In this document: one piece after another, positions 78 through 40,610 of the stretch | How positions within the stretch are numbered: the first letter of the stretch is position 1 | How the letters are laid out: each line of letters begins with the position of its first letter | Assembly: GCA_017432305.1 (NCBI GenBank) | Contig: JAFRJK010000008.1 | Location: 78,866-142,865 of the forward strand | From: Candidatus Saccharimonadota bacterium | Lineage (GTDB): Bacteria > Patescibacteriota > Saccharimonadia > Saccharimonadales > Saccharimonadaceae | Length of the DNA stretch: 64,000 nucleotides | Reading direction: 5' to 3' | Made by a program: the position numbers and the translations under genes | The notes under the pieces: model-generated | What the model saw: the letters and a program-made list of their open reading frames with translations, nothing else | Databases searched by the model: none | What the model was told of the DNA's origin: nothing

Positions 78-1094
78 TTAGCTCTGCTTTTCAAGATGTC
101 TCCTTGCTTTTTCAGTTACAACGCGCCCTCTCGGCGTTTTTTCGATAAAACCAAGTTGAATTAAGAATGGCTCGTAATAATCTTCGATTGTTGTCACTTC
201 GTCACCCGTTAAAGCCGCAATGGTCGTTAATCCCACCGGTCGATTCCCGTAACTTTCAAGCATTAAATTCATCATGTTTCGATCTGCCGGATCAAGCCCA
301 AGCGAGTCGATTTCCATGAGTTCCAAAGCTTCTTTTGCGATTTTTTCATCGATAATCCCATCACCGTTCACATCGGCATAATCGCGCACACGTTTCGTTA
401 AGCGGTTTGCAATCCTAGGAGTTAAGCGCGAACGAGTTGCAAGAATTGAAGTTGCTTCTGGCTTTATCGGCGTGTTTAAAATCTTCGCAGTTCGTTCAAT
501 AATTTTTTCAATTTCTGGGACTTTATAATATTCGAGACGGTGTGTGATGCCGAAACGGTCTCTAAGTGGGCCGGCTAGGGAACCGGTTCTCGTCGTTGCT
601 CCGATTACCGTAAAATGTGGAAGGTCGAGCCGAACGCTTCTCGCCGCTGGACCTTTCCCAATCACGATATCGAGTTTATAATCTTCCATTGCGGAATACA
701 AAATTTCTTCTACGGCGCGCCTAAGTCGGTGAATTTCATCGATAAATAAAACATCGCCTTCTTGGAGATTTGTCAAAATCGAAGCGAGGTCTCCGGCGCG
801 CTCAATCGCCGGCCCACTCGTCACTCGAAAGTTTGCTCCAATTTCATGCGCAATCACGTTCGCCATTGTCGTTTTTCCAAGCCCAGGTGGACCATATAAT
901 AAAACGTGGTCGAGCGCCGTTCCATCATCGCGTTTTTTCACTGCATCAATCGCGAGTTTCAGATTTTTCTTTAATCGTTCCTGGCCGATATACTCAGAAA
1001 AAGTCGTCGGGCGCAAACTTTGCTCGATTACTTGTTCTTCCGCATCTTCTTCGTGTGTCGTATTGTCTATAACTCTTTCAATTCCCACTGTCAC
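78..1094 (-). CDS. ruvB: Holliday junction branch-migration helicase RuvB
   Basis: 338-aa ORF with Walker [10 protein letters not shown] and a DEIHRL box. The layout is RuvB-family along the full length. Confidence 0.95.
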
Positions 1095-6374: not shown

Positions 6375-6399
6375 AACTTGCCGAAGGCAAGTTATTTTA
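6375..6399 (+). terminator. Intrinsic terminator (possibly bidirectional)
   Basis: AACTTGCC-gaa-GGCAAGTT followed by ATTTTA. Confidence 0.7.
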
Positions 6400-6915
6400 C
6401 CTTCTATTTCGAATATAATCTAGCCCCTTATTATATCTATTTTCTCTTATCCAATCCGGCTTTTTATTCCCGCCTTTTCTTTCTTTTCCACTTCCGTTTT
6501 CCTTATTATTATATCCGCGAGTCTTAAATCCTTTTGTTTTATTACATCTCGAACAAGTTAGAACGAGATTTTTTGTTGCATTCGTTCCGCCGTAAAAAAG
6601 TGGCACAACATGATCGACATGAGTATAAGGTGTATTAAGCCCAATCAGTCTTTTACACCAAGCACATCTTTTCTTTTGGCAAATCCACTGCTCTCTCTTC
6701 CATTTTTTAAATCGCTCTGATTTTTTTAGTTCCTCAAACTCGTACCGTAATCTCCACCACCGCTCATATCGTGCCTTATTTTCCGCCTTAAAATCTCGAT
6801 ATGGTTTTCTTTCCCATTCTTTTTTTCGTTTCTGCCACTTTAAGAAACTAATTTTACTCATCACCGCGACAAGAAATAATATTACCACAAGAATAAAACA
6901 ACCCACCACTTCCAT
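6397..6915 (-). CDS. HNH endonuclease with an N-terminal transmembrane helix
   Basis: HVDHVVPLFYGGTNATKNLVLTCSRCNKTKG is an HNH motif. Cys pairs CQKKRCAWC are present. The N-terminus VVGCFILVVILFLVAVM is hydrophobic. Confidence 0.75.
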   Translation of the reverse strand: MEVVGCFILVVILFLVAVMSKISFLKWQKRKKEWERKPYRDFKAENKARYERWWRLRYEFEELKKSERFKKWKREQWICQKKRCAWCKRLIGLNTPYTHVDHVVPLFYGGTNATKNLVLTCSRCNKTKGFKTRGYNNKENGSGKERKGGNKKPDWIRENRYNKGLDYIRNRR

Positions 6916-6987: not shown

Positions 6988-7383
6988 ATGAAAAAGAAAT
7001 CTGGTTTTACTATTATTGAACTTGCTGTTGTGATTGTGTTTGCAACACTTCTTGTTGTTTTATTCTTCATTCAAAAAGCGAACACTGAAGCTATGCACCG
7101 TGATGAACAAAGAAAAGAAGCGATAAATGCTATGTATTACGCTCTTGAAGAAGGATTTTTTATCGAAAATGGTTATTATCCAGAAGAAATTTCTGAGGAG
7201 AACTTAAAGGTGATGGACCCACAACTCTTCACCGATCCTTATGGGATTAATCTTGGAAAAGACGGTAGCACCTATTCCTATGAACCAGCAAATTGTGATA
7301 ATGGAAAATGTAAAGAATACACTCTCCGCGCAAAGCTTGAAAAAGAAGATGAATACGTTAAGAAAAATCGCGAGACAAAATAA
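6988..7383 (+). CDS. Type IV pilin / pseudopilin (prepilin-type N-terminal methylation motif)
   Basis: KKSG/FTIIELAVVIVFATLLVV is the classical G|FT(L/I)IE cleavage-methylation signal. AGGAG lies upstream. Confidence 0.75.
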   Translation: MKKKSGFTIIELAVVIVFATLLVVLFFIQKANTEAMHRDEQRKEAINAMYYALEEGFFIENGYYPEEISEENLKVMDPQLFTDPYGINLGKDGSTYSYEPANCDNGKCKEYTLRAKLEKEDEYVKKNRETK

Positions 7384-7961
7384 TGATTGCTCATATAAAG
7401 GGAACTATTGCTGAAAAATTTCTAAATTCCGTTATTGTCGACGTAAACGGTGTTGGTTATGAAATCGCTTTAACCGCGCTCGATTATGAAGCCGTAAATG
7501 TTGGTGAGGATCATAAATTCTATACTCATCACGCAATTCGCGAGAACGCCGAAGAACTTTATGGCTTTTCAAGTCTCGCTGCAAAAAAGTTATATGAGCT
7601 TTTAATTTCTGTTAATGGTGTTGGCCCGAAAGCTGGAATGGCAATTTTATCGCTCGCCGCTCCAGAAGAAGTTCGAAACGCCATCGCAAACGCTGATGTT
7701 GCTTTTGTCTCGAAAGCAAGTGGTGTAGGGAAGAAATCTGCTGAACGTGTTATTGTCGATTTACGCGATAAGGTTGGACTTCCATCTCATGTCGGTGCAA
7801 CTGAAATTGTAACGAGAACGGCAATAATGGAAAATGATGAAGCTCTTGATGCGCTCATCGCTCTTGGTTTCCCATTAAAGGAAGCGACTTCCGCGCTTGA
7901 AAAAATCGATAAATCTCTCCCGACCGAAGAGAGAATTAAATTGGCTTTAAAGAATAAATAA
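7383..7961 (+). CDS. ruvA: Holliday junction DNA helicase subunit RuvA
   Basis: MIAHIKGTI...VDVNGVGYEI, then HhH repeats (VNGVGPKAGMAIL, ASGVGKKSAERVI) and a C-terminal domain III. Confidence 0.9.
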   Translation: MIAHIKGTIAEKFLNSVIVDVNGVGYEIALTALDYEAVNVGEDHKFYTHHAIRENAEELYGFSSLAAKKLYELLISVNGVGPKAGMAILSLAAPEEVRNAIANADVAFVSKASGVGKKSAERVIVDLRDKVGLPSHVGATEIVTRTAIMENDEALDALIALGFPLKEATSALEKIDKSLPTEERIKLALKNK

Positions 7962-9257: not shown

Positions 9258-9467
9258 TTGGATTTTTGGAGGGGTGGGAGATATTCTCGTAGTGATGGCC
9301 AAATTGCCATGCGGATAGTGGACGGTAACAAATGGGAGAATAAGGCTTTTAGCTCCACTAACGCTTGGAATACACATATGAACCATGCAGCTGGTGGCAC
9401 TGCATCGGTATGGGTTGAAACGAATAATTTTAGAGGAGACGGGTATTTCATCCGTTGCGCAACGGAT
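9258..9467 (+). repeat. FWRGG-IRC cassette E1
   Basis: Head TTGGATTTTTGGAGGGGTGGG at 9258-9278. Tail ATCCGTTGCGCAACGGAT at 9450-9467, shared with E2. Reads LDFWRGGRYSRSDGQIAMRIVDGNKWENKAFSSTNAWNTHMNHAAGGTASVWVETNNFRGDGYFIRCATD. Begins at TTG, not ATG, and has no SD. Confidence 0.85.
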
Positions 9468-9662
9468 AGGAAACCCGAACCCCCGATAATCTGACCAGCC
9501 ATGGTGCACAAAGGTAGTGCTGCCACCAGTATGCAGACCTAGATTAGCGTCAGCTGCACGATCGGACCCAGTAGCACGGTTATACCAAATTCGCCCCCAA
9601 GTAGTACGTACATGTACTTGACCGTAAGAATAATAATATTCCCCACCCCTCCAAAAATCCAA
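9450..9662 (-). repeat. FWRGG-IRC cassette E2
   Basis: Head rc at 9642-9662. Reads LDFWRGGEYYYSYGQVHVRTTWGRIWYNRATGSDRAADANLGLHTGGSTTFVHHGWSDYRGFGFPIRCATD. Converges on E1 and shares its tail palindrome. Confidence 0.85.
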
Positions 9663-9666
9663 CGGA

Positions 9667-9868
9667 TACGCAACGGATATTATTCCCATTACCACGATAA
9701 GGAATACCTTCTACCCAGATGTTAGTAGTAGTGCCATCAAAGCCAGTAGATAGATTAGAGCCATGTGTTGCACTATAAGCGAGATAAGCCCACCAATACC
9801 CAATCTCTATGCGAGCAAAAGCACCACCACTAGTCCGATAATAATACCCACCCCTCCAAAAATCCAAG
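9667..9868 (-). repeat. FWRGG-IRC cassette E3 (tandem with E2)
   Basis: Head rc at 9848-9868. Tail ATCCGTTGCGTA (rc of 9667-9678) abuts the TCCGTTGG lead-in of E2. Reads LDFWRGGYYYRTSGGAFARIEIGYWWAYLAYSATHGSNLSTGFDGTTTNIWVEGIPYRGNGNNIRCVS. An in-frame ATG at 9930 sits behind GAGGAG (9935-9940). Confidence 0.85.
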
Positions 9869-10003: not shown

Positions 10004-10450
10004 CTAATTTGGAGGGGCGCACTTTTTTCTAGGTTTTCCTCGATAATTTGGGTTCATCGGGTATTCTCGCACTTTATCGACGATGTTATAAAAAATCTTT
10101 TCGGAAACAAGTCCGATCGGCTCATTTAAGCGTTTCGCTGAGTAGCGTTCGATTTGATTTAATAACGCATAAGTAGTTTCTCCGTCAACAATCACTTCCT
10201 CGGTCCAATTTTCATTCCTCTGTCTAGTCCTCGTAAAAGGAATGCCATAAAATAAGTGACCATTTATCTTACTAAAAACAAGCACTGGCCGGCGGAAAAG
10301 CTCGCCCTTCCCATCTTGCTCCGAGCCAATATTCACTCCGACCGAACACCACCAAATCTCTCCGTTATGAAACATAAATTCATACTCGCCTGCATTTAAC
10401 TTTTTCTTTATCCGATTCCATCCATCAAAATCTTTCTGATAATTTTCCAT
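10004..10450 (-). CDS. PemK/MazF-family toxin-like protein
   Basis: 148 aa. DFDGWNRIKKKL...GEIWWCSVGVNIGSEQDGKGELFRRPVLVFSK matches the long MazF/PemK subfamily (from memory). No recognisable antitoxin is adjacent. Confidence 0.6.
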   Translation of the reverse strand: MENYQKDFDGWNRIKKKLNAGEYEFMFHNGEIWWCSVGVNIGSEQDGKGELFRRPVLVFSKINGHLFYGIPFTRTRQRNENWTEEVIVDGETTYALLNQIERYSAKRLNEPIGLVSEKIFYNIVDKVREYPMNPNYRGKPRKKCAPPN

Positions 10451-10472
10451 AAATTCCTTTCATAGTGCATCA

Positions 10473-10678
10473 CCCAACGGATGATCCATCCAAGACCTCT
10501 CGGGCTATCGGCACTACCCGGGTATACCGTGGTCGAATTATATTGGTTGCCGGCATATATGCTTAGATAATTGCTCCTGTCACTATGGGTTGAACGGCGA
10601 GTTTGCCAGCGACCATGGGTCACACGATAATAGATAGCCCCAGACGTTTCATAATTCCCACCCCTCCAAAAATCCATT
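10473..10678 (-). repeat. FWRGG-IRC cassette E4 (degenerate tail; the only copy starting with ATG)
   Basis: Head rc at 10658-10678 reads ATGGATTTTTGGAGGGGTGGG. Reads MDFWRGGNYETSGAIYYRVTHGRWQTRRSTHSDRSNYLSIYAGNQYNSTTVYPGSADSPRGLGWIIRWV. Tail is ATCCGTTGGGTG. Confidence 0.8.
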
Positions 10679-10692: not shown

Positions 10693-11844
10693 TTAGAAAT
10701 AATACTCGTCCTCAATCGGCTCGTTAATTGCGCGTTTGATTAAGTCATATCTAAACCCCTGCCGAAGCAGATGTTGAATCAGTTTTCTATCGTCGTAACC
10801 TCTTCGACGTTTTTTTGCAATCACTTTTTTAATTTCAATTTCATCATCTCGGGCTTTCTCGCCGTTTTCATCCTCGCCCATCACCTCTTTAATAATATCT
10901 TCTGAGACACCTTTAACCCTAAGTTCGAGCCAAAGTTTTTTCTCCGACGTTCCTTTAATCCGGTTTCTATTTTCGACAAAATATTTTGCAAACGCCTCAT
11001 CATCAATCACTTTCATATCGATTAGTTTTGCAATTACTGCATCGATATCTTCATCTTTAATTGGTGCTGCTGGCTTTCTTGGCAAATTTGTTCTTGCGAA
11101 ACCACGATATTCAAAGCGGTTATCCGCATATTCTGAATCACGATCCACTCCAGTTGATTTTGCAAAACTATCCGTCCCTAAATCCTTATTTGAATCTGGG
11201 TTTTTCTTTCGTCTTTGCTCACGTTTCTCTTTTAGCTGTTCGTTCTTATCATGCACTTTTTGTCTAATTTCGCGAACCTCTTGGCGATATTCCTCGTCAT
11301 TCTCCAGTCGTTTTAAGAAGTCGTCATACCTTTGTTGTTCAATTTTACGTTTAAATTGTTTTCGACGAAGATAATTCCGAATTTCTCTCTCGGAATGTGG
11401 GCGCGTAAAAGCATACTCAAGTGTTCTTTGAAAAAGTTTTCCAAAATCGGATGCCGATTGAAACTCATTAATTTGTTCTCTTGTATAGACTTTCCCAACT
11501 CGGATTCCAAAATCAGACACCTGATTGATCGTTAAGGAAAAAGCAAATCTCCCACCAAGGAAAACATTAACGCGGTTTTTATCCTTTACTCCCGGACGAA
11601 GATCAGTGACTTCACGTGGGTTCATTCTCCCTCTTGGTCTTTTCGGAAATTTTAGCCCAGCGGTTTTGTCAATAAAATCATCTTCAAAATCCTCAAAATC
11701 ATCCACCTCATCATTATCATCCCCCTCATCTTCGAACTTGCCGAGTTTTTTATCTCGGAGATTTATAATTTCCACCAATTTTCTCCAAATAAATTTTTGA
11801 TAATTCCATGGCAGTTTTCGCAACCCGTAACGGCTCTTTTGCAT
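10693..11844 (-). CDS. recX: RecX-like regulatory protein (unusually long, 383 aa)
   Basis: Lies downstream of recA. Contains RecX-type helical repeats (FTRPHSEREIRNYLRRKQ; LELRVKGVSEDIIKEVM; RRGYDDRKLIQHLLRQGFRYDLIKRAI). The predicted start overlaps the NUDIX gene by 95 nt, so the true start is uncertain. Confidence 0.55.
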   Translation of the reverse strand: MQKSRYGLRKLPWNYQKFIWRKLVEIINLRDKKLGKFEDEGDDNDEVDDFEDFEDDFIDKTAGLKFPKRPRGRMNPREVTDLRPGVKDKNRVNVFLGGRFAFSLTINQVSDFGIRVGKVYTREQINEFQSASDFGKLFQRTLEYAFTRPHSEREIRNYLRRKQFKRKIEQQRYDDFLKRLENDEEYRQEVREIRQKVHDKNEQLKEKREQRRKKNPDSNKDLGTDSFAKSTGVDRDSEYADNRFEYRGFARTNLPRKPAAPIKDEDIDAVIAKLIDMKVIDDEAFAKYFVENRNRIKGTSEKKLWLELRVKGVSEDIIKEVMGEDENGEKARDDEIEIKKVIAKKRRRGYDDRKLIQHLLRQGFRYDLIKRAINEPIEDEYYF

Positions 11845-12316
11845 TTTTATCTATGAACGATGTAAATTCAGAAAGTGGAACCCATTTTACTTCGGAAACT
11901 TCTCTATCATCAAAGTGAAAATCATCTCCTCGCCCCGTCCAATCACAGATAAAGTAATTATTAATAAGGCTTCTTTGCATCCCATAAAGCGAGAAAAGAT
12001 ATCTTAAATCACTCTCTTTTATCTCGATTCCGATTTCCTCGCGAGCTTCTCGGATTGCCGCCTCGGTAATTGTTTCGCCATAATTCATATGACCGGCTGC
12101 CGAAATGTCCCACTTATTGGCGTTATGTACGAACTCAGAGCGATGTTGGAATAAGACTTCAATCCCATTTTTAGTTCTTCTATAGAGCCAAACATCAACC
12201 GCCCCGACCGCAAAATCTGAGCCCATACTCGGATTATCGAGTGCCGAATCGTACCCACCGTCTTTTAGAGGAATGCCAGAAAGACTATAAGCTTGCCATA
12301 ACTCCCCTTTATGCAT
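11750..12316 (-). CDS. NUDIX hydrolase
   Basis: Nudix box GHMNYGETITEAAIREAREEIGIEI. Confidence 0.8.
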   Translation of the reverse strand: MHKGELWQAYSLSGIPLKDGGYDSALDNPSMGSDFAVGAVDVWLYRRTKNGIEVLFQHRSEFVHNANKWDISAAGHMNYGETITEAAIREAREEIGIEIKESDLRYLFSLYGMQRSLINNYFICDWTGRGDDFHFDDREVSEVKWVPLSEFTSFIDKNAKEPLRVAKTAMELSKIYLEKIGGNYKSPR

Positions 12317-13347
12317 TAGTCTTCTTCCTCAGCTTTTGCGCGAACTTTTTTCTCAATTTCCGCCATCAACTTTGGATTTTCTTTGAATAGTTTCTTTACT
12401 GTCTCACGGCCTTGGCCAATTGTCTCGCCATTATATTTAAGGAATGCACCAGCTTTTTCAACTACGCCATATTGTACCGCGAGGTCGAGAATATCGCCGG
12501 TCTTTGAAATACCTTCATTATACATAATGTCGAACTCAGCTGTCCTAAATGGTGCCGCAATCTTGTTCTTCACAACTTTAACTTTTGTCCTGTTTCCAGA
12601 AACATCATCGCCATCTTTAATCTGTCCGATTCTACGAATATCAAGACGAACCGACGCATAGAATTTAAGCGCATTACCACCAGTAGTTGTTTCTGGATTT
12701 CCGAACATCACGCCAATCTTCATACGAATCTGGTTAATGAAAATAACTGTTGCTTTTGATTTTGCAATAATACCAGTGAGTTTACGCATTGCTTGTGACA
12801 TTAAGCGTGCTTGAAGCCCCATTTGTGCGTCACCCATATCACCATCAATTTCAGCTTGCGGAACGAGCGCTGCGACCGAGTCAACAACGATTAAGTCAAC
12901 CGCACCTGAACGAACGAGCGTCTCACAAATCTCGAGTGCCGATTCGCCGTTATCTGGTTGCGAAATTAAAAGATTTTCTGTGTCAACTCCGATGCGTTTT
13001 GCGTAAGCTGGGTCAAGTGCATGCTCTGCATCAATGAACGCAGCTTGGCCTCCGCCTTTTTGGACTTCAGAAATTGCATGAAGCGCAAGTGTAGTTTTAC
13101 CGGAAGATTCCGGGCCGTAGATTTCGATAATACGACCTTTTGGATACCCACCACCAAGTGCTAAATCAAGCGATAAAGAACCGGAAGGAATTAATTCGAC
13201 ATCGATTTTTCTCGTTTCACCGAGTTTCATAATCGAGCCTTCGCCGAATTGCTTGGTAATTTGTGCCACCGCAAGTTTTAGAGCTTCGTTCTTCCCGTCA
13301 TTTTTTTCTGCCTTTGTAGCCTTTTCAGTTTGAGTGGACTTTGCCAT
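12316..13347 (-). CDS. recA: Recombinase RecA
   Basis: GPESSGKTT Walker A and full RecA-family sequence. AGGAGG lies 7 nt upstream of the ATG at 13347 (MAKSTQ...). The ORF-track start at 13389 is unlikely. Confidence 0.95.
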
Positions 13348-13555
13348 TTTATACCTCCTAAATGTTATGTCTATTATATCATTCTTCACCCCAAAAATGA
13401 AGACAGGCTCTCTGATTTCGGCTACGGCTCTTTTGAGTAGAGCGCGTTGGTCTTTAGAACTTTAAGGCAGAAACCCTAACCCTAACGTAACAAATATTTT
13501 TTTATCCTGCAAGCACAAGGATTATGGAGTTTTACTTTTATGTTATAATATCTAT

Positions 13556-13778: not shown

Positions 13779-14516
13779 ATGAAAAAACCGAAGCTGCTCT
13801 TTGTTCATGGTTTCCGTGGGAATCATCTTGGCTTGAAAGAGACAAGAGATTATCTTGAAAATCTCGGTTATGATTGCTATGCTCCGGACATCCCACCAGC
13901 TTTTAATACTCAAGCCGAAAAAGTCCCAGAACTTGAAGGCTATACAGCCGACGCCTACGCAAAATGGATTGCTGATTATATTAAGATGCATAAACTAGAT
14001 CGCCCAATTTTAATTGGTCATTCGATGGGCTCGATTATCTCCGCTGCTACTGCCGAAAAATATCCAGATTTAATTAATGACAAAATTTTCTTACTTTCTC
14101 CGATTTGCGTCACCCCGCCGAAATTCATTTGTAATCTCGCTCCGCTTTCTGTCATCCTCCCGAATAAAATGATTGGTTATCTTACAACAAAATATCTTCT
14201 CATTAAAAAAGATAAAGAGACTCTAAAGAAAACCCTAGAACTTACCTATAAATGTACTGAGAAATTTACTTCAAAAAGAAACACTGGTCACGCTGCAAAA
14301 TTTAGTATTTCCTATGCCATCTCCGATTTTAATTTTAAAAAGAACTGCGTTTTTATCGCTGGCGATACTGATAAGTTAAATAGCAGAGATCAAGTAAAAT
14401 CCGTCGCAGAAAAATTTGGCACTGAACCGATTTTTATCGAAAAATCCGGCCATCTTATTAACTATGAAGAGCCAATAAAACTTGCTGAAATAATTGCCGA
14501 AAAATTAGAAGACTAA
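13779..14516 (+). CDS. Alpha/beta-fold hydrolase
   Basis: LFVHGFRGNH oxyanion region and the nucleophile elbow GHSMGS. Confidence 0.75.
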   Translation: MKKPKLLFVHGFRGNHLGLKETRDYLENLGYDCYAPDIPPAFNTQAEKVPELEGYTADAYAKWIADYIKMHKLDRPILIGHSMGSIISAATAEKYPDLINDKIFLLSPICVTPPKFICNLAPLSVILPNKMIGYLTTKYLLIKKDKETLKKTLELTYKCTEKFTSKRNTGHAAKFSISYAISDFNFKKNCVFIAGDTDKLNSRDQVKSVAEKFGTEPIFIEKSGHLINYEEPIKLAEIIAEKLED

Positions 14517-15058
14517 ATCCATTTAATAAGGCGCTTATATTCTTCAGAGTCTTTTTCGTATGAGTCAAGAATATCTTCGGTATAAGTTTTTCCGTTCGAG
14601 ATATTTAAAGTTTCAACTTCTGGGCAAGACGCAAGTAGTCTAATAATTGCCTCGTCAGTATCAATATTCGTCATTGATTTCCTTTTGTCAGTGGAGTGCG
14701 AATGAACGCGGAGTTCTTTATAAACGAACCTCTTGATTCCCGCTTGGAGACAATGTTTAAGACAATTCTCACAAGTTGCAATCATATTATAAAGCGTACA
14801 ACCAGTTAGATCCCTTCCTGCAAAAATTAGCGCGTTCATCTCCGAATGAATCGCAAAATAATATTTCATCGGGCGTTCTGAAAGCGTCATTTTTGATTCG
14901 TCCGCACCTTGGATTGTTCCGTTGTAACCGAAAGAAACTGGTCGCTTTTTTTCATCAACGATTACACACCCATTTTTTGAAGACGGATCCTTTGATTTCT
15001 TCGCAACCGTCTCTGCGATTTCCATGAAATATTCGTCCCAAGACATCTTTTTGTCCAT
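14513..15058 (-). CDS. Deoxycytidylate (dCMP) deaminase / ComEB family
   Basis: HSEMNAL ... CENCLKHCLQAGIKRFVY is the zinc-binding CDA motif (H-x-E, C-x2-C). Confidence 0.8.
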   Translation of the reverse strand: MDKKMSWDEYFMEIAETVAKKSKDPSSKNGCVIVDEKKRPVSFGYNGTIQGADESKMTLSERPMKYYFAIHSEMNALIFAGRDLTGCTLYNMIATCENCLKHCLQAGIKRFVYKELRVHSHSTDKRKSMTNIDTDEAIIRLLASCPEVETLNISNGKTYTEDILDSYEKDSEEYKRLIKWI

Positions 15059-27284: not shown

Positions 27285-27360
27285 TGGAGCCGCTGGCAGG
27301 GCTTGAACCTGTGACCTGCTCGTTACGAATGAGCTGCTCTACCAACTGAGCTACAGCGGC
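27285..27360 (-). tRNA. tRNA-Thr (anticodon CGT), CCA encoded
   Basis: The rc reads GCCGCTGTAGCTCAGTTGGTAGAGCAGCTCATTCGTAACGAGCAGGTCACAGGTTCAAGCCCTGCCAGCGGCTCCA. Confidence 0.85.
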
Positions 27361-27404
27361 ACCTAGGGGTATTCTAACATATTTCTCAAGAAAAACAAAG
27401 CAAA

Positions 27405-27418
27405 CCCCAAAAATCCTA
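27405..27418 (-). repeat. Truncated cassette head remnant
   Basis: The rc reads TAGGATTTTTGGGG and is preceded by conserved spacer S1. The body is missing and tRNA-Thr lies 45 nt further on. Confidence 0.6.
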
Positions 27419-27465
27419 CAGAGCAATATTAGCTGTCTTTAATATTAAAGTTTAATTTTACTCCG
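27419..27465. repeat. Head-to-head junction spacer S1 (47 nt, AT-rich)
   Basis: Reverse complement of S2 (29050-29096) with one mismatch. Confidence 0.85.
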
Positions 27466-27674
27466 TTGGATTTTTGGAGGGGTGGGCAATATGATCGAAG
27501 CTCCGGTAAAGTCGGTGCTCGCCTTTCTCACTTTTGGTCATTTACGCGTTTTTACACATATAGCGAGCTTGGTCGAATATCAATTGTTGCTACTTGGATT
27601 GAAAACAGTACTGGTCTAATTACTTTTGGCACAATGTATGGCGGACATGGAGGTCGTATCCGTTGCGCACGGAT
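27466..27674 (+). repeat. FWRGG-IRC cassette E5
   Basis: Head at 27466-27486. Reads LDFWRGGQYDRSSGKVGARLSHFWSFTRFYTYSELGRISIVATWIENSTGLITFGTMYGGHGGRIRCARI. The 17-nt tail ATCCGTTGCGCACGGAT is shared with E6. Confidence 0.85.
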
Positions 27675-27863
27675 AGAAATCCCACGACCTTTATATTCAG
27701 AAGTACCAGCTACTATATAGCCAGCATTATTTACGATTGACAGTATGAGTAGTTCGCCTCTCTCAGTAATATAGTCCCTATAGATCTGATAATACCCGCC
27801 AATTGCACGGTTATTAACTCCACCCCACGAACGAGTATAGTCCCCACCCCTCCAAAAATCCAA
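27658..27863 (-). repeat. FWRGG-IRC cassette E6
   Basis: Head rc at 27843-27863. Reads LDFWRGGDYTRSWGGVNNRAIGGYYQIYRDYITERGELLILSIVNNAGYIVAGTSEYKGRGISIRAQRI. The Cys is lost through the 1-nt-short palindrome. Confidence 0.85.
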
Positions 27864-27892
27864 GAGAGTAGATTTAATGATATAATATATAT

Positions 27893-28804
27893 ATGTACGA
27901 TATTACGATTATTGGTGCAGGGATTGCCGGAATGACGGCAGCAATTTATGCCCGTCGCGCGAACAAAAAAGTCCTCGTTCTCGAAGGAAAAACTTATGGT
28001 GGACAAATTGTTGAAACTGAAAAAATTGAAAACTATCCTGCAGCCCCTGGTATTGCTGGACCGGAACTCGCAAAAAAAGTTTATGATCAAATGATGAAAT
28101 TTAACCCAGATTTTAAATATGAGAAAGTTTTAGGGATTTCTAAAAATGACGACGGTTTTAAAATAACGACTGACGAAAGCGAATACTCATCAAAAACAGT
28201 TGTCATTGCGACCGGAACGAATTATAAAAAAGCTGGGCTTGAAAATGAAGCTGAGTTGACTGGAAGAGGGGTTTCATATTGTGCAACTTGTGATGGCTCG
28301 CTTTATAGAGATAAAGAAATTGCAGTGTTCGGAGGTGGAAATTCCGCGCTCTACTCCGTACTTTATCTCTCAGATTTAGCCTCAAAAGTCACGGTCATTC
28401 ATCGTCGAAATGAATTTCGTGGAGATGACGCCTTAGTTAAGAAAATCAAAACAAAAGAGAATGTCGACTATAAACTCGGAAAAGTTGTAAGTGAATTAAA
28501 GTCTGAGGACGGAAAGCTTTCGAGTATCGTTTTGAAAAACGTCAAAAATGGCGAAACCGAAGAGTTGAAAGTTGCAGCGCTTTTTGTTGAAATTGGACGT
28601 GAACCGGACAATTCGATTTTTAAAGATTTAGTCGAGCTAGACGAAAAAGGCTATATTAAGGCAGACGAAGACGGGAAAACTTCAGCTTCCGGATTTTTTG
28701 CAGCTGGCGATTGTCGAGCGAAAACTTTAAGACAAATCGTTACGGCAAGCTCAGACGGTGCAGCGGCAGCCTCGAGCGCAATTGAATATTTAAATTCAAA
28801 GTAA
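27893..28804 (+). CDS. trxB: Thioredoxin-disulfide reductase
   Basis: GAGIAGMTAA FAD motif, CATCDG redox centre and GGGNSA NADPH motif. Leaderless: TATAAT at 27881-27886, 6 nt, then ATG. Confidence 0.9.
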   Translation: MYDITIIGAGIAGMTAAIYARRANKKVLVLEGKTYGGQIVETEKIENYPAAPGIAGPELAKKVYDQMMKFNPDFKYEKVLGISKNDDGFKITTDESEYSSKTVVIATGTNYKKAGLENEAELTGRGVSYCATCDGSLYRDKEIAVFGGGNSALYSVLYLSDLASKVTVIHRRNEFRGDDALVKKIKTKENVDYKLGKVVSELKSEDGKLSSIVLKNVKNGETEELKVAALFVEIGREPDNSIFKDLVELDEKGYIKADEDGKTSASGFFAAGDCRAKTLRQIVTASSDGAAAASSAIEYLNSK

Positions 28805-28814
28805 TTATATCCAG

Positions 28815-28860
28815 TTGGATGTTTGGTAGGCATGGCAGTCGCATCCGTTGCACAACGGAG
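28815..28860 (+). repeat. Collapsed cassette Ec (degenerate head fused to tail)
   Basis: TTGGATGTTTGGTAGGCATGG (head-like) plus 7 nt plus ATCCGTTGCACAACGGAG (tail shared with E7). The interior is deleted. Confidence 0.6.
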
Positions 28861-29049
28861 AGGACCGCCATAACCTCGATAATAATAACTCGTAACCCAA
28901 ACACTAGCAAAGCTAGAAGTAACATCTGCGTACAAGCGGGAACTATATTCGGCGTTTATAGCTCGGCGCGACCACCACTGGAAATATCTCCCGCGATTAC
29001 AAACATTCCCGCTAACAGGACAATACAACCCACCCCTCCAAAAATCCAA
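28843..29049 (-). repeat. FWRGG-IRC cassette E7
   Basis: Head rc at 29029-29049. Reads LDFWRGGLYCPVSGNVCNRGRYFQWWSRRAINAEYSSRLYADVTSSFASVWVTSYYYRGYGGPLRCATD. Confidence 0.85.
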
Positions 29050-29096
29050 CGGAGTAAAATTAAACTTTAATATTAAAGAAAGCTAATATTGCTCTG
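29050..29096. repeat. Head-to-head junction spacer S2
   Basis: CGGAGTAAAATTAAACTTTAATATTAAAGAAAGCTAATATTGCTCTG. It is the inverted copy of S1 and is homologous to S3 and S4. Confidence 0.85.
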
Positions 29097-29303
29097 TAGT
29101 ATTTTTAGAGGGGTGGGTATTATGCACGGTCTAGCGGTAGCGTTACTAGTCGCGCCCGTAATAGTTATGGGTGGACTAATAGAGCAGGTAGTGCTACTTC
29201 TTCGTTCGGCCTAATCATGCATCCGCATAATGATCAAGGATTTATAGAATCATCTGCCAATTTCAACCGTGGCCATGGATGGTTTCTCCGTTGCGCAACG
29301 GAT
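29097..29303 (+). repeat. FWRGG-IRC cassette E8 (two TAG stops in the head)
   Basis: Head is TAGTATTTTTAGAGGGGTGGG. The remainder is open: RGGYYARSSGSVTSRARNSYGWTNRAGSATSSFGLIMHPHNDQGFIESSANFNRGHGWFLRCATD. Confidence 0.85.
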
Positions 29304-29492
29304 AGAATTCCCCCACGCTCTTTTGTTATTAGCTTGAGGCCAAACATAGGGGTCATCATCATTTATACCAGTGTCTAAAAGATTATGATGAGTACTTGCT
29401 GTAGCCGTACGGTACGTCATATATCCTCCAGTTGTGCGACCTCGAGGTCTGCCATAGCTACTACTATAACCCCCACCCCTCCAAAAATCCAA
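29286..29492 (-). repeat. FWRGG-IRC cassette E9
   Basis: Head rc at 29472-29492. Reads LDFWRGGGYSSSYGRPRGRTTGGYMTYRTATASTHHNLLDTGINDDDPYVWPQANNKRAWGNSIRCATE. Shares its tail with E8. Confidence 0.85.
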
Positions 29493-29648
29493 CGGAGCAA
29501 GAAGCTGATAAAAAGTAAGTTTACTTACTTTTTAGAAGCGACGCAGGTCCGTCTATAGCGAAGCTAGACGGAGCAAGAAGCTGTCTAAAGCTAAGTTAGA
29601 CGAGGCACTTTTAGACATAACGAGAAAAATATTGTATAATAAACATTA

Positions 29649-31517
29649 ATGAATACCGAAAAAATCCGAAATTTTTGTATTATTGCACATATTGACCACG
29701 GCAAGTCCACTCTTGCCGATCGGATGATGGAAATTACAAACACTGTCGAAAAACGTGAGATGAAGTCCCAGCTCCTGGACAGTATGGAGCTCGAACGCGA
29801 AAAGGGAATTACAATTAAACTCGCTCCAGTTCAAATGGATTATAAAGGCTACGAGCTAAATCTTATTGATACTCCGGGCCATGTTGATTTCTCTTATGAA
29901 GTTTCACGTAGCCTCCAAGCCGTTGAATCCGCAATTCTTGTTGTCGATGCGACACAAGGTATTCAGGCCCAAACTCTCGCAAACGTTTACCTTGCGCTCG
30001 AACAAGATTTAACAATCATCCCAGTGATAAACAAAATCGATCTCCCGGCCGCAAATGTTGAAAAAGTCACAAATGAAATTGTCAATCTCCTCGGCTGTAA
30101 ACCCGAAGAAATCATCCCAGTCTCCGCCAAAACCGGCCTAAACGTCGAAAAAGTACTAGACGCAATTATAGAACGCGGATCATCACCAAGTTTTTGGGAG
30201 TTGCCGGACGCAGCTAAGGAGGCTGAGGAGTCGAGCCCTGTGGAGACAGGCGCGAGGACTCCGTCTCCAGAAAACTTGCGTGATGAACGCGCTAAAACTC
30301 GTGCTCTAATCTTCGATTCTTATTTTGATGACTATCGCGGTGTGGTCCTTTATGTCCGCATCGTGAATGGGAAAATTGAAAAGAACGCAAACATTCACAT
30401 GATGGAAAACCGTACTAATGGCATCGCGCTTGAAGTTGGCGTTTTAAAACCAAAAATGGTTCCGAAGGATGAACTAAAAGAAGGTGAAGTTGGTTATATC
30501 GTTACAAACCTAAAAACTACTCGTGAAGCAAAAGTTGGTGATACAGTAACATTACAAAAACAGCCCGCGACCACTCCACTCCCAGGTTATAAAAACGTTT
30601 TGCCATTTGTTTATGCTGGCTTTTTCCCAGTGTCGAATGATCAATATAAGGACTTAAAAGAAGCAGTTGAAAAACTCGCACTTTCCGATTCAGCCCTGCG
30701 TTTTGAGCCAGAAAATTCACCAGTTCTAGGCTTTGGACTTCGTATTGGTTTCCTTGGGCTTCTTCATATGGATATTATCCGCGAGCGCCTAGAGCGTGAA
30801 TTTGATCTCGATCTCGTCGTGACTAATCCGTCGACAAATTATGAAGTGAAATTAAATAACGGTGAAGAAATCGAAATAAAATCTGCGGCTGATTTGCCGG
30901 ACATGAGTGAAGTTCTAGAAATTCGTGAACCGTGGGTAAAAGGCGAAATTATCCTTCCAGTTTCAATGATTGGGAACGTCCTAAATCTTATAGTTGAAAA
31001 ACGCGGACTTCATAAAGATATTTCGTATATGGAAGATCGCGCACTAATTAATTTCGAAGCCCCAATGGCAAATCTCTTAACCGATTTTTATGACCAATTA
31101 AAATCTCTAACTTCCGGTTATGCATCGTTTAATTATGAAATTTCGGATTATAGGACTGAAGACTTAGTCCGTGTTGATTTTCTTGTCGGCGGAAATAAAA
31201 TCGACGCTTTAGCGATTATGTGCCACCGTTCAGAATCCGACGCCATTGGCCGCGACATCACGAAAAAATTAAAACAAGTCATTCCACGTCAAAATTATGA
31301 AGTTGCACTCCAAGCTGCAATTGGCGCCCGTATTATCGCTCGCGAAACGATTGGCGCATATCGAAAAGATGTGACCGTGAAAATCCATACTGGTGACCGT
31401 GATCGTAAAGCAAAACTTCTCGAAAAACAAAAACGCGGTAAAGCTAGAATGAAACGCTTCGGAAAAATTGACATCCCATCAGAGGCCTTCACCGTTATGT
31501 TAAAACGAGACGACTAA
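29649..31517 (+). CDS. lepA: Elongation factor 4 (LepA), with a ~25-aa GC-rich insertion
   Basis: IIAHIDHGKST, DTPGHVDF and NKID GTPase motifs and a LepA C-terminal domain. The insertion lies at about 30177-30299. Confidence 0.95.
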   Translation: MNTEKIRNFCIIAHIDHGKSTLADRMMEITNTVEKREMKSQLLDSMELEREKGITIKLAPVQMDYKGYELNLIDTPGHVDFSYEVSRSLQAVESAILVVDATQGIQAQTLANVYLALEQDLTIIPVINKIDLPAANVEKVTNEIVNLLGCKPEEIIPVSAKTGLNVEKVLDAIIERGSSPSFWELPDAAKEAEESSPVETGARTPSPENLRDERAKTRALIFDSYFDDYRGVVLYVRIVNGKIEKNANIHMMENRTNGIALEVGVLKPKMVPKDELKEGEVGYIVTNLKTTREAKVGDTVTLQKQPATTPLPGYKNVLPFVYAGFFPVSNDQYKDLKEAVEKLALSDSALRFEPENSPVLGFGLRIGFLGLLHMDIIRERLEREFDLDLVVTNPSTNYEVKLNNGEEIEIKSAADLPDMSEVLEIREPWVKGEIILPVSMIGNVLNLIVEKRGLHKDISYMEDRALINFEAPMANLLTDFYDQLKSLTSGYASFNYEISDYRTEDLVRVDFLVGGNKIDALAIMCHRSESDAIGRDITKKLKQVIPRQNYEVALQAAIGARIIARETIGAYRKDVTVKIHTGDRDRKAKLLEKQKRGKARMKRFGKIDIPSEAFTVMLKRDD

Positions 31518-31541
31518 ATAGTCTAATTTAATACTGCTCTC

Positions 31542-31748
31542 TTGGATTTTTGGAGGGGTGGGAGATATAAATACAATTCCGGCATAATAGAAAGCCGCCT
31601 CGGACTTAGTGAGTGGTGGGAATTAGTTGCATATTCAGATAACGGCGGGTATTATTTTGATACTTACGATGGCCCCGAAACGTCGTCAGTATGGACTCCG
31701 GGAAGATATAGAAGAGGCCTAGGGCTATTTCTCCGTTGCACAACGGAG
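31542..31748 (+). repeat. FWRGG-IRC cassette E10 (solo)
   Basis: Head at 31542-31562. Reads LDFWRGGRYKYNSGIIESRLGLSEWWELVAYSDNGGYYFDTYDGPETSSVWTPGRYRRGLGLFLRCTTE. Tail is CTCCGTTGCACAACGGAG. Confidence 0.85.
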
Positions 31749-31754
31749 CAATAA

Positions 31755-31781
31755 CTAGCACTCTTGACCTTTAAGTGCTAA
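31755..31781 (+). promoter_or_regulatory. CIRCE operator overlapping the hrcA promoter
   Basis: cTAGCACTC-ttgaccttt-aAGTGCTAA compared with the consensus TTAGCACTC-N9-GAGTGCTAA. TTGACC (31764-31769), 17 nt, TATAAT (31787-31792), 6 nt, then ATG. Confidence 0.8.
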
Positions 31782-31798
31782 AGCGCTATAATGTACTC

Positions 31799-32539
31799 AT
31801 GAATATTACCGAGCGTCAAAAACAAATTCTCTTCGCAATTATCGAGGAATATGCCGAGGTTGCTGCCCCTGTTGGGAGTGTTACACTCGCTAAACTTTTT
31901 GATGTCTCCTCCGCAACAATTCGTGCCGAAATGAGTCGTCTCGAAGAGGCTGGCTTAATCGCTCAACCACATACTTCCGCTGGTCGTATTCCGACCGACG
32001 CTGGCTATCGTTTTTATGTAAATTCTTTGACTGAACAACCTGAAAAATCTGAATTCGAACCAACAAAAATGCTCGGTGCCGGTACAACTCCAAACCGAAA
32101 TGTTCACGCTCTCGAAGTTCGTATCTCATCTCAAGAACGCACCGATTATGCAATCCGTAGCGCGGTCGATATGCTCGCCGAATTAACCGGGAATCTTGGT
32201 CTTGGAACGATTGGCGACCAACTTTATCTTTCCGGAATTTCTCGTCTTTTCGCCCAACCGGAATTTCTCGACAACTCTCGCATCCAGGGCGTTGCAAAAC
32301 TCCTCGATAATCTCGAACCATGGTTAAAAGAAGCTCGTCCGGGCGAACCGCTAAATATTTTCATCGGCTCGGAAAACCCAATCGGAAAAACTTCCGGTGT
32401 TAGCTTAATTATTTCAAAATTTAGAAGTCCGTATTCTGATAATTCCTACATCGGCGTCCTTGGCCCAACCCGCCAAAATTATGCTGAAACGATGCGCCTA
32501 GTCCGCCATGCTGGGAACATTCTTGAAAACAGCTTATAA
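31799..32539 (+). CDS. hrcA: Heat-inducible repressor HrcA
   Basis: MNITERQKQILFAIIEEY...VGS..LA and full-length family resemblance. The ORF-track start at 31775 lies inside the promoter/CIRCE and is rejected. Confidence 0.9.
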   Translation: MNITERQKQILFAIIEEYAEVAAPVGSVTLAKLFDVSSATIRAEMSRLEEAGLIAQPHTSAGRIPTDAGYRFYVNSLTEQPEKSEFEPTKMLGAGTTPNRNVHALEVRISSQERTDYAIRSAVDMLAELTGNLGLGTIGDQLYLSGISRLFAQPEFLDNSRIQGVAKLLDNLEPWLKEARPGEPLNIFIGSENPIGKTSGVSLIISKFRSPYSDNSYIGVLGPTRQNYAETMRLVRHAGNILENSL

Positions 32540-32549
32540 GGAGATAAAA

Positions 32550-33008
32550 ATGGAATTAAAACCGAAAAAATCAGTTAAAGAAAGTGCTGAAGTTGCAAAA
32601 CTCGAAGCCGAAAAAACCGAACTCTTAAACGATCTGCAAAGAACTCGGGCTGATTTTGAGAACTTCCGAAAACAAGTCGATCTCCAAAAGTCTCAAGCGA
32701 AAAAACTCGCCGAAGATTCGACGGTTATGAAGATTTTACCGTTAATCGACGATATGTCGCGCGCAATTTCTGCAAATCCGGAAGCTCTTTCTCCAATTTC
32801 AAAAACGTTAGAAAAAACAATGAGTGAACTTGGACTTTCTAAAATCGAGACATCCTCCGGAACTGATTTTAATCCAGATCTTCACGATGCCATTTCGATG
32901 GAAGAAAGTGATGGCGAAAAAGAAGTTATCGCCGAAGAACTCCGCCCGGGATATCTTTATAATGGTGAAGTCCTCCGCCCAGCCATGGTGCGTGTGAAAC
33001 GGATTTAA
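32550..33008 (+). CDS. grpE: Nucleotide exchange factor GrpE
   Basis: RTRADFENFRKQ motif and C-terminal beta domain ...GYLYNGEVLRPAMVRV. AAGGAG lies before the ATG at 32550. Confidence 0.9.
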   Translation: MELKPKKSVKESAEVAKLEAEKTELLNDLQRTRADFENFRKQVDLQKSQAKKLAEDSTVMKILPLIDDMSRAISANPEALSPISKTLEKTMSELGLSKIETSSGTDFNPDLHDAISMEESDGEKEVIAEELRPGYLYNGEVLRPAMVRVKRI

Positions 33009-33209
33009 TACGCAACGGATATTCATCCCAAATCCCCTATTGTTTCCACCTGAGTTCCAAATACTAGCTTTACCACCGCTAGCAATAGTATTCATATGGG
33101 AACCTTGATAATTAGTGGTTGCATTATTGCCCCACCAAACGCCTGCATGTATGCGCCCGAAAATATTCGCAGAGCCATAAGCTTGACTCCCACCCCTCCA
33201 AAAATCCAA
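33009..33209 (-). repeat. FWRGG-IRC cassette E11
   Basis: Head rc at 33189-33209. Reads LDFWRGGSQAYGSANIFGRIHAGVWWGNNATTNYQGSHMNTIASGGKASIWNSGGNNRGFGMNIRCV. The tail starts on the base after the grpE stop. Confidence 0.85.
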
Positions 33210-33251
33210 TCGGAACAATATTACTATAATACTAAAACTAATTATGCTCTG
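33210..33251. repeat. Head-to-head junction spacer S3
   Basis: TCGGAACAATATTACTATAATACTAAAACTAATTATGCTCTG. It contains a TATAAT. Confidence 0.8.
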
Positions 33252-33466
33252 TAGTATTTTTGGAGGGGTGGGTATTACGATCGCGAAGGTGTTGGTCGCA
33301 TTTCAAATCGCATTTCCTATAGCGCCTTTCTAACAAATTACCAATTTGAAGTTGGGCCGAACAATGGCGCCGCTCTCGTTTCTCGAATTGGTGATGGAAC
33401 TACCGTAACGTGGGTGCCAGGGATTTCTAACAAGGCGTTTGGGTTTTCTATCCGTACGCAACGGAT
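33252..33466 (+). repeat. FWRGG-IRC cassette E12 (TAG at the first head codon)
   Basis: Head is TAGTATTTTTGGAGGGGTGGG. Reads YFWRGGYYDREGVGRISNRISYSAFLTNYQFEVGPNNGAALVSRIGDGTTVTWVPGISNKAFGFSIRTQR. Confidence 0.85.
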
Positions 33467-33652
33467 AGCAATTCCATAACTTCTGTTGCTAGTAGAATAA
33501 AAGAAATGAGCAGTGCCGTTCGTATCATATTTCGAGTTTAGATAGTATGCCGTTGTAGCTCCAGCAGCAACTTTCATCCATGACCTACCGCCTTCAAGTC
33601 GTCCCACAACAGCACCATTAACACCATACTGACCACCCCTCCAAAAATCCAA
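33450..33652 (-). repeat. FWRGG-IRC cassette E13
   Basis: Head rc at 33632-33652. Reads LDFWRGGQYGVNGAVVGRLEGGRSWMKVAAGATTAYYLNSKYDTNGTAHFFYSTSNRSYGIAIRCVRI. Confidence 0.85.
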
Positions 33653-33697
33653 TCGGAACAATATTACTATAATATTAAAAGAACTAATTATGCTCTA
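33653..33697. repeat. Head-to-head junction spacer S4
   Basis: TCGGAACAATATTACTATAATATTAAAAGAACTAATTATGCTCTA. About 90% identical to S3 by eye. Confidence 0.8.
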
Positions 33698-33897
33698 TTA
33701 GATTTTTGGAGGGGTGGGTACTATACTAGGTCATTTGGCGCTGCTAGTAGCCGTAACGCGAGTGGATTTTGGTGGGCGGGTTATGCTCTTGGTGGATCTA
33801 GCCGTGTACTAAATACTGGCATCACCGATGGGGGATATACTGGACCGCAAAGTGAATACCATGCTGGTGGAGGACTCTATATCCGTGCGCAACGGAT
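33698..33897 (+). repeat. FWRGG-IRC cassette E14 (TTA at the first codon)
   Basis: Reads LDFWRGGYYTRSFGAASSRNASGFWWAGYALGGSSRVLNTGITDGGYTGPQSEYHAGGGLYIRAQR. There is no start codon in frame. Confidence 0.85.
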
Positions 33898-34089
33898 GAA
33901 GAACCCCCAGGTCCTGCGGTTGTTTGCCGGCACATAAACACTAACTTTTGAACCTTCGTTTTGAATATCAGAAGCTAGATACCAAGCTTTTTCTTCCGAA
34001 CCAGCAACACTAGTCCACCAGTTCCCCCATGTTGTACGGTCACGGATAATGATATTAGACCAATAAGTCCCACCCCTCCAAAAATCCAA
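33881..34089 (-). repeat. FWRGG-IRC cassette E15
   Basis: Head rc at 34069-34089. Reads LDFWRGGTYWSNIIIRDRTTWGNWWTSVAGSEEKAWYLASDIQNEGSKVSVYVPANNRRTWGFFIRCARI. Confidence 0.85.
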
Positions 34090-34128
34090 TGAGAATACGA
34101 ATATGTTATAATCTTAAAAAGGACTTTT

Positions 34129-34734: not shown

Positions 34735-34744
34735 TGGACTTATT

Positions 34745-37669: not shown

Positions 37670-37776
37670 CCAATATATTTTACCATAAAAACTAAAAAAC
37701 TCAACCTCGCTGAAACGTTGGAAATATCCCCTAAACGTGCTATACTAGAAAGAGTTATAAAATAAGTAGAGGTGGT

Positions 37777-40563: not shown

Positions 40564-40582
40564 ACAAGTTTAAAATCCTTTA

Positions 40583-40610
40583 AAGTGCGCTCTAAAATTG
40601 GGGCGCACTT
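40583..40610 (+). terminator. Hairpin after the PBP gene
   Basis: AAGTGCGC-12 nt-GCGCACTT with a weak T-tract. Confidence 0.5.

Follow-up and report, generated by a model that had tools for sequence, protein, structure and literature searches.

In Neisseria (pilE/pilS), Mycoplasma genitalium (MgPar), Treponema pallidum (tprK) and Anaplasma (msp2), dispersed silent copies donate segments to a surface gene, and conserved flanks and internal blocks guide the crossovers. RuvAB and RecA/RecX are among the enzymes of gene-conversion variation systems. To our knowledge, none of these four systems is coupled to a retroelement, and we know of none with a blunt tail-to-tail dyad whose two strands encode the same conserved C-terminal motif. 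The R64 shufflon exchanges C-terminal segments of pilV through the Rci recombinase, using convergent tail-to-tail pairs with inverted conserved repeats at their heads. In Borrelia vls, the cassettes are bordered by short conserved repeats (of 17 bp in strain B31), random conversion of segments produces mosaics, RuvAB is involved, and inverted repeats have been proposed to fold into a cruciform that aids vlsE conversion (PMC11499132, PMC2779866). Variable repeats of the DUF1566 or Fib_succ_major type have been listed by Wu et al. as category d, or CLec2, of diversity-generating retroelements (DGRs) (PMC5758913). Here we describe a family of short silent cassettes, many of them joined tail to tail at an 18-nt palindrome, in a 64,000-nt stretch of the genome of a Candidatus Saccharimonadota bacterium (assembly GCA_017432305.1, contig JAFRJK010000008.1, positions 78,866 to 142,865; hereafter the window), together with the full-length expressed gene, encoding P0008, that shares the cassette ends and is the target of a DGR.

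We conclude, with a probability of roughly 0.7, that the window holds a portion of a scattered archive of silent cassettes, which act as donors in segmental gene conversion of this DGR target. Functionally, this is probably conversion of the vls, pilS or MgPar type grafted onto a target of the CLec2 class. A full-length gene outside the window shares its ends with the cassettes, the cassettes are promoter-less and 5'-truncated copies, and a mosaic variant of the gene was found with unchanged flanks. As in Borrelia vls, there is one expression site with many promoter-less partial copies, segmental-conversion mosaics and conserved cassette ends. Unlike vls, which is a contiguous array beside its expression site, the cassettes are only ~210 nt long, are dispersed in the gaps between housekeeping genes and are packed tail to tail and head to head, while the recipient is also a DGR target and the host is an episymbiont of the candidate phyla radiation. 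In contrast to the R64 shufflon, no Rci-like recombinase was found among the open reading frames (ORFs) scanned, the cassettes do not lie beside the gene, and a mosaic double crossover was observed. As in CLec2 DGRs such as that of Legionella LdtA (PMC5758913), the variable repeat of the gene (VR1), the template repeat (TR), the initiation of mutagenic homing element (IMH), the reverse transcriptase (RT) and the accessory gene are canonical; in comparison with those systems, the cassette limits coincide with the VR limits, and the window cassettes lack an IMH and do not derive from the TR. No description of a cassette archive feeding a DGR target, or of silent cassettes in Saccharibacteria, was found in the literature searched.

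The cassette family and its palindromic tails

Searching with the head sequence TCCGTTGGATTTTTGGAGGGGTGG and with a six-frame profile yielded 17 cassettes of ~210 nt each (E1 to E17) and one stub (Ec). Together they occupy ~6% of the window, are spread across 36 kb in both orientations and fill eight intergenic gaps between housekeeping genes. The genes adjoining these gaps are yebC, a mazF-like gene and recX; tRNA-Thr and trxB; trxB and lepA; lepA and hrcA; and grpE and adk, with further cassettes on both sides of tRNA-His and tRNA-Gly. Each cassette is a copy, without a start codon, of the last ~70 codons of the gene (LDFWRGG...G.G..IRC), and its frame is held open, with 4 stops in 1185 sense codons compared with 32-101 in each of the other five frames. 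The heads (18-24 nt) and the tail (10 nt) are almost invariant even at synonymous sites, and the interiors share 46-66% identity, pair partners resembling one another no more than they resemble the rest. An in-frame stop sits directly upstream of many cassettes, and several heads carry TAG or TTA in place of TTG. No ribosome-binding site precedes any cassette head, and a scan of 27.2-34.4 kb found no promoter-like sites upstream of the heads. The cassettes and the spacers between them are as follows.

9258-9467, plus strand: E1, silent cassette (LDFWRGG...IRCATD), paired with E2; identical in the related strain represented by contig L144.
9450-9662, minus strand: E2, silent cassette.
9661-9867, minus strand: E3, silent cassette; its tail ATCCGTTGCGTA abuts the E2 head, one frame off.
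10465-10677, minus strand: E4, silent cassette with tail IRW; begins directly after the recX stop codon.
27404-27461, unstranded: degenerate head remnant (minus strand) and AT-rich spacer upstream of E5, belonging to the 78-bp inverted repeat described below.
27466-27675, plus strand: E5, silent cassette (IRCARI).
27657-27863, minus strand: E6, silent cassette (IRAQRI, Cys lost).
28811-28860, plus strand: Ec, stub of head and tail only, interior deleted.
28843-29049, minus strand: E7, silent cassette.
29054-29096, unstranded: AT-rich spacer between the head-to-head E7 and E8.
29097-29303, plus strand: E8, silent cassette (TAG for TGG in the head).
29286-29492, minus strand: E9, silent cassette.
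31542-31748, plus strand: E10, silent cassette, unpaired; full dyad CTCCGTTGCACAACGGAG at 31731-31748, probably a relic of a lost partner.
33003-33209, minus strand: E11, silent cassette; its tail abuts the grpE stop codon.
33214-33247, unstranded: AT-rich spacer between E11 and E12, starting AATATTACTATAATA.
33252-33467, plus strand: E12, silent cassette (TAG in frame before the head; tail IRTQRI).
33449-33652, minus strand: E13, silent cassette.
33657-33693, unstranded: AT-rich spacer between E13 and E14.
33698-33898, plus strand: E14, silent cassette (IRAQRM).
33880-34089, minus strand: E15, silent cassette.
45146-45361, minus strand: E16, silent cassette; tail ATCCGTTGCGTAGC identical to the tail of the expressed gene.
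45657-45869, plus strand: E17, silent cassette (tail ATCCGTTGCGTAGC, then a stop); first 58 nt 83% identical to VR1.

Where E1 and E2 converge, at 9450-9467, lies the perfect 18-nt palindrome ATCCGTTGCGCAACGGAT, and translation confirmed that it reads IRCATD on both strands, as had been proposed in an earlier reading of the sequence alone (hereafter the sequence-only reading). The 18-nt stretch is indeed shared by E1 and E2, but its description as an overlap did not stand: each cassette ends right after its Cys codon, with TGC of one abutting GCA of the other, and there is no true overlap. ATD follows IRC because the reverse complement of ATC-CGT-TGC, the I-R-C codons of the partner on the opposite strand, is GCA-ACG-GAT. 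The palindrome is therefore two convergent cassettes abutted right after their Cys codons, from which it arises automatically, and it lets both strands keep I-R-C. The same reading had listed further junctions, and these were likewise borne out: E8/E9 gives LRCATD and IRCATE, E7 reads LRCATD opposite the stub Ec, and at each of the three 17-nt junctions one partner keeps IRC and the other reads IRAQR or IRTQR. E3, E11, E16 and E17 contain the half site ATCCGTTGCGTA, and E10 is unpaired yet retains both arms. The junctions are listed below.

9450-9467, unstranded: E1/E2 dyad ATCCGTTGCGCAACGGAT, formed where the I-R-C codons of the two cassettes abut.
27658-27674, unstranded: E5/E6 17-nt junction ATCCGTTGCGCACGGAT; the same class occurs in contigs L073 and L142.
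28843-28860, unstranded: Ec/E7 18-nt junction ATCCGTTGCACAACGGAG.
29286-29303, unstranded: E8/E9 18-nt junction CTCCGTTGCGCAACGGAT.
33450-33466, unstranded: E12/E13 17-nt junction ATCCGTACGCAACGGAT; the orthologous junction in contig L071 has 18 nt.
33881-33897, unstranded: E14/E15 17-nt junction ATCCGTGCGCAACGGAT.

The core of the palindrome, CCGTTGCGCAACGG, was found with up to two mismatches at four sites in the window (9452, 28845, 29288 and 31733) compared with 0.09 expected, and all four are cassette 3' ends. In 68 kb of related contigs, 8/8 further copies of the 18-nt or 17-nt class also lie at cassette tails, and seven of these are tail-to-tail junctions with an unchanged register; unrelated DNA gave four matches in 830 kb. 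The junction register is identical in 13 pairs from several strains, so that the expectation of a constant joining position, with every copy at a cassette 3' end, held throughout. A repetitive extragenic palindromic (REP) or miniature inverted-repeat transposable element (MITE) type of intergenic repeat was rejected, as every dyad copy sits at a cassette tail and the cassettes have preserved a constrained reading frame. An integron attC or dif-like dyad was set aside as well: the core does not match GTTRRRY, the cassettes do not share one orientation, and the ORFs scanned include no integrase. The dyad of E10, and a partial right arm in contig L072, look like relics of deleted partners.

As single-stranded DNA, the dyad folds into the predicted hairpin of a 7-bp stem and a 4-nt loop (-10.1 kcal/mol, z = -3.9 for the E1/E2 dyad with its flanks), and no run of T follows 3' of the dyad. 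It may also act as a cruciform or a binding site. The heptamer TCCGTTG, which the sequence-only reading took as a direct repeat bounding each unit, occurs 27 times in the window compared with 8.9 expected, and 21 of these copies lie inside cassettes (16 in tails and 5 in heads). As a boundary on both sides it is weak, being exact before only 5/17 heads. The heptamer copies sequence of the expressed gene, where it forms part of the Pro-Leu codons in the head and of the Ile-Arg-Cys codons in the tail.

That reading had further attributed the junctions to a site-specific or hairpin-templated joining event. The site-specific route found no backing, with no site-specific recombinase among the window ORFs scanned and homology-guided conversion giving the same breakpoints. 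Hairpin-templated joining fared no better: partner interiors are 46-66% identical, no closer than those of non-partners. As pair partners show no special kinship, duplication by a recent fold-back or on a hairpin template is unlikely, and a recent inverted duplication of the partners was rejected for the same lack of likeness.

Several other features accompany the cassettes. Inverted repeats of 78 bp (27409-27486 and 29029-29106), 97% identical and composed of head, spacer and head, flank a 1.5-kb segment that holds E5, E6, trxB, Ec and E7 and could invert. The head-to-head spacers at 33214-33247, 33657-33693 and 29054-29096 are conserved and polar, with a TTGG-type head on one side and a TAG-type head with an in-frame stop on the other; they carry an AT-rich dyad, AATATTA-N3-TAATATT, with TATAAT, a candidate binding site or bidirectional promoter. 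An inverted repeat resembling the controlling inverted repeat of chaperone expression (CIRCE; AGCACTC-N9-AGTGCTAA, 31757-31792) begins 9 nt past the E10 dyad and overlaps a strong sigma-70-like hrcA promoter. A search of Rfam with the window and the DGR locus returned tRNAs only, or nothing. Scans of genome and metagenome contigs with head 17- and 18-mers found no match that encodes a cassette, and the genome-contig matches were near chance level (an estimated ~70 for a 17-mer in 596 Gb). In one JGI metagenome (Ga0209679; contigs L078-L137), the head 18-mer GATTTTTGGAGGGGTGGG lies within an unrelated dispersed repeat, in the context TTATGAACGGATTTTGATG-head-GCGTGGCCCAAAG, with no cassette after it.

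The expressed gene and its retroelement

P0008 is a surface protein of 564 aa with an N-terminal membrane anchor, a probable Fib_succ_major or C-type-lectin-like domain at its C-terminal end and a C-terminus reading PLDFWRGG...IRCVARQ. Its gene lies outside the window, on contigs L138 and L139. The sample that yielded L139 also yielded contig L076, whose sequence equals window 27308-41517 at 100% identity. The P0008 gene shares up to 28 nt with the cassette heads, and its tail ATCCGTTGCGTAGC is common to E16 and E17. At 90% identity the P0008 cluster has 13 members, one of them annotated as Candidatus Saccharibacteria, and the full-length ones are nearly identical over ~495 residues, with one or two substitutions in the constant part of P0152 and P0156. 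Most members carry a DGR-diversified TR scaffold, and three differ completely between LDFWRGG and IRC. All variants compared here are consensus contigs from different samples.

Downstream of P0008 lie a 331-aa ORF (the accessory gene), an RT carrying the motifs IGNLTSQ and YVDD, and the TR, which is on the other strand. VR1 comprises the last 70 codons of P0008, and a second variable repeat, VR2, is an orphan copy in an intergenic gap. Both match the TR at 96-97% of non-A sites and at 66-68% of A sites, and 15/15 Asn codons of the TR vary among nine natural P0008 variants. A GC-rich hairpin lies 3' of VR1 and is disrupted in the TR. By these signatures the locus is a canonical, active DGR. VR2 (L138:514-820) is 5'-truncated and consists of 55 nt of the constant region, the VR, the IMH and a 3' element, with no gene. 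It has been adenine-mutagenized differently in samples L138 and L140; therefore, the DGR diversifies a silent copy. Transfer of TR markers into VR2 stops, on the 3' side, within ~3 nt of the position of the dyad centre. On the same contig, a remnant of a VR 3' end (tail, IMH and 3' element) lies directly after the RT gene (L138:13935-14018, minus strand), and two related elements of ~150 nt flank the TR (L138 ~14075-14230 and ~14625-14780); none of these has an Rfam match.

The window cassettes bear no such signatures. Identity of E1-E17 to the TR is 33-55% at A sites and 42-57% at non-A sites, the window holds no match to the IMH or the 3' element with up to six mismatches and no RT by tblastn, and no TR/VR relationship exists between any two cassettes. 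An origin of the cassettes from the known TR was rejected, identity being ~50% at A and non-A sites alike and the IMH being absent. An NNY codon bias, tried as a fossil DGR signature, could not be told apart from the genome's own codon usage. On this evidence, the window cassettes do not appear to be DGR products.

Single cassettes have no Pfam match, and a profile search of the PDB with the cassettes gave weak lectin-repeat noise only. In full-length proteins, however, the cassette profile matches the C-terminal end of Fib_succ_major (PF09603/TIGR02145), aligning to the last ~65 of 187 PF09603 profile positions (~120-187). P0126 and others reach the Pfam cut-off, P0008 itself scores 27.3 bits against a cut-off of 33.9, and a member of its cluster bears the JGI label TIGR02145 family. 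Because the profile aligns at the extreme C-terminus, the cassette is predicted to be only the last third of a C-type-lectin-like domain; the partner of the cassette Cys sits in the constant region. An AlphaFold2 model of P0008 made with no alignment was unusable (predicted local distance difference test score, 35).

Probable exchange between silent and expressed copies

Cassette sequence in the expressed gene is seen in P0153, encoded on contig L140 and found on five contigs. Relative to L138, both flanks are 99.8-99.99% identical and the TR is unchanged, and the interior of VR1 alone differs. This interior is a perfect mosaic of two orphan cassettes, with its 5' part from L142 and its 3' part from L143. 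From the head to TTTTGGTGG it is identical to the L142 orphan, from TTTGGTGG to ATTCGTTGCGTAG it is identical to the L143 orphan, and the crossover between them lies in TTTGGTGG. The mosaic junctions measure 8-14 nt, which is far too short for assembly artefacts. In addition, P0156 carries the cassette of the orphan P0032. Here, compared with L138 and L145, a 28-nt head (L146:2258-2285) joins the constant region to the orphan together with the rpsJ flank of the orphan, and this junction is either a reciprocal rearrangement or an assembly chimera.

Comparison of strains locates the exchange boundaries at heads and tails. Between the window and L071, homology begins in the E12 head and ends in the E14 head, the neighbouring cassettes are different, and the L071 spacer matching the E11/E12 spacer is inverted and not as long. 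L144 retains E1 and the 18-nt palindrome in identical form, and in place of E2 and E3 (9469-9841) it has one unrelated cassette, with breakpoints at the palindrome and the E3 head; the proposal that the tail is a real exchange boundary is thereby upheld. Furthermore, one cassette interior occurs in three settings, with a palindromic paired tail in L071, with an unpaired GCGTAG tail in L143 and in the expressed gene in L140, and these sequences diverge within 1-2 bases of the dyad centre, after CGTTGCG.

The silent copies also show coding constraint. Interior codon changes between orthologous cassettes comprise 16 synonymous and 6 non-synonymous ones, with 24.5% synonymous expected (p = 3.5e-6). 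E1 has 0/210 nt mismatches between the window and L144, compared with 25/714 in the adjacent yebC. These patterns of substitution point to purifying selection on the silent cassettes.

A mechanism consistent with these observations would have two parts. The DGR immediately downstream rewrites the variable tip of P0008 by adenine mutagenesis, and segments of silent cassettes would be copied into P0008 by homology-guided segmental gene conversion, probably in the direction from silent to expressed and probably by recombination of the RecA/RuvAB type. Crossovers would fall in the head TTGGATTTTTGGAGGGGTGGG (LDFWRGG), an internal Trp-Trp block and the tail ATCCGTTGCG (IRC), because these are the sole stretches common to all members and the expressed gene. 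The palindrome is the final stretch of homology to the expressed gene, and exchanges would resolve there; since homology-guided exchange resolves in shared blocks, the precision of the breakpoints would call for no dedicated enzyme. The 17 cassettes of the window would be used as donors in the same way.

Several observations weigh against this account. None of E1-E17 was found in the expressed gene, and the 13 cluster members have the TR scaffold or cassettes from outside the window. The donors of the L140 mosaic come from other samples than L140 itself, and the window is linked to the DGR locus through shared samples and identical heads, not through one contig. The window region was compared in copies from three samples, and these are identical, with no hint that the silent loci are still being shuffled. 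The tail homology amounts to just 10-14 nt, which is short for RecA, and the L146 junction, if it is a reciprocal rearrangement, favours inversion.

A more elaborate version, which we regard as doubtful, is a programmed two-tier diversification of an ultrasmall episymbiont, in which silent cassettes of VR size, probably dozens of them, provide a receptor-binding protein with new scaffolds by segmental conversion and the DGR fine-tunes or overwrites them, also diversifying VR2 off-line, with the dyad as an active signal. The dyad could be a cruciform or protein-binding site for the adjacent RuvAB, RecA or RecX. Alternatively, because TR markers in VR2 stop no more than 3 nt from the dyad centre, the dyad could be the footprint of a DGR priming site, and the archive would then have been built by retroelement copying. 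The genes ruvB (78-1094, minus strand), ruvA (7383-7961, plus strand), recX (10693-11844, minus strand) and recA (12316-13389, minus strand) lie beside the first cassette loci, all of them no more than 13 kb away, a nearness that may so far be a coincidence of position. A PemK/MazF-like toxin ORF (10004-10450, minus strand) sits between E3 and E4, with no antitoxin identified, and a small HNH endonuclease ORF (6397-6915, minus strand) adjoins tRNA-Met.

Alternative explanations and biological meaning

Convergent pairs bounded by inverted 24-nt heads are also what a shufflon-like system would offer, in which a site-specific recombinase acting at the heads, and perhaps at the dyad, joins the constant part to C-terminal cassettes by inversion, the tail-to-tail pairs being counterparts of the R64 A/A' and B/B' segments. 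The L146 junction resembles a single head crossover that brings the downstream flank of the orphan with it, the head-to-head spacer is inverted in L071 relative to the window, and the 78-bp inverted repeats bracket trxB. We nevertheless consider inversion improbable. The L140 variant shows two crossovers and, inside them, a mosaic junction, a product out of reach of inversion, the L146 junction may be an assembly chimera, and the cassettes lie across 36 kb between essential genes in both orientations; moreover, no integrase or invertase was found around the DGR locus on L138 or among the window ORFs scanned, a set that did not include every small ORF. Somewhat less probable again is that the cassettes are debris, that is, pieces of the target gene's 3' end in decay, or MITE-like repeats derived from it, with the palindrome a duplication accident. 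The absence of start codons and, in the region scanned, of promoter-like sites would fit decay, as would the stop in the E8 head, the stub Ec, the loss of Cys by one partner in three pairs and the pairs with MITE-like terminal inverted repeats. Decay is at odds, however, with a reading frame kept in 17/17 copies, with the signs of purifying selection and the conservation of E1 beyond that of its neighbour yebC, and with the occurrence of orphan cassette sequence in the expressed gene.

Each cassette could instead be a remote DGR target, that is, a VR rewritten by the retroelement with the dyad as a hairpin or cruciform marking the target, but we judge this highly unlikely. It is true that TR-VR homology has its 5' limit at the head and its 3' limit at the tail, that the gene-less orphan VR2 is DGR-diversified and that a GC-rich hairpin follows VR1 and not the TR. 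Against this, the cassettes resemble the TR equally poorly at A and non-A sites (~50%), the window lacks an IMH, a 3' element and an RT, and no cassette pair stands in a TR/VR relation. The least credible possibility is that the cassettes are independent small genes translated from a TTG or ATG at the head, with the dyad as a shared bidirectional terminator. Gene callers do predict such ORFs in many metagenomes, and the relative P0006 has a Shine-Dalgarno sequence and ATG with a 31-aa extension. The heads in the window, however, are preceded by no Shine-Dalgarno sequence and in several cases carry TAG or TTA for TTG, the peptide would span no more than the final third of a domain that has its partner Cys in the constant region, and no T-run follows the dyad.

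Donation from an archive of silent cassettes thus remains the preferred explanation, and it bears on how bacteria vary their surfaces. DGRs and silent-cassette conversion are the two main bacterial routes to surface hypervariation and have so far been regarded as independent inventions; in this case the two seem to work on one gene and on the same 70 codons of it. With such an archive, a DGR target would not be confined to the sequence space around one template. The commitment of ~6% of 64 kb to the archive in a reduced genome points to strong selection, in this obligate episymbiont, on a binding protein that faces the host or phage. As gene callers miss the cassettes or call them as orphan ORFs of ~60-170 aa, similar archives may hide in other genomes.

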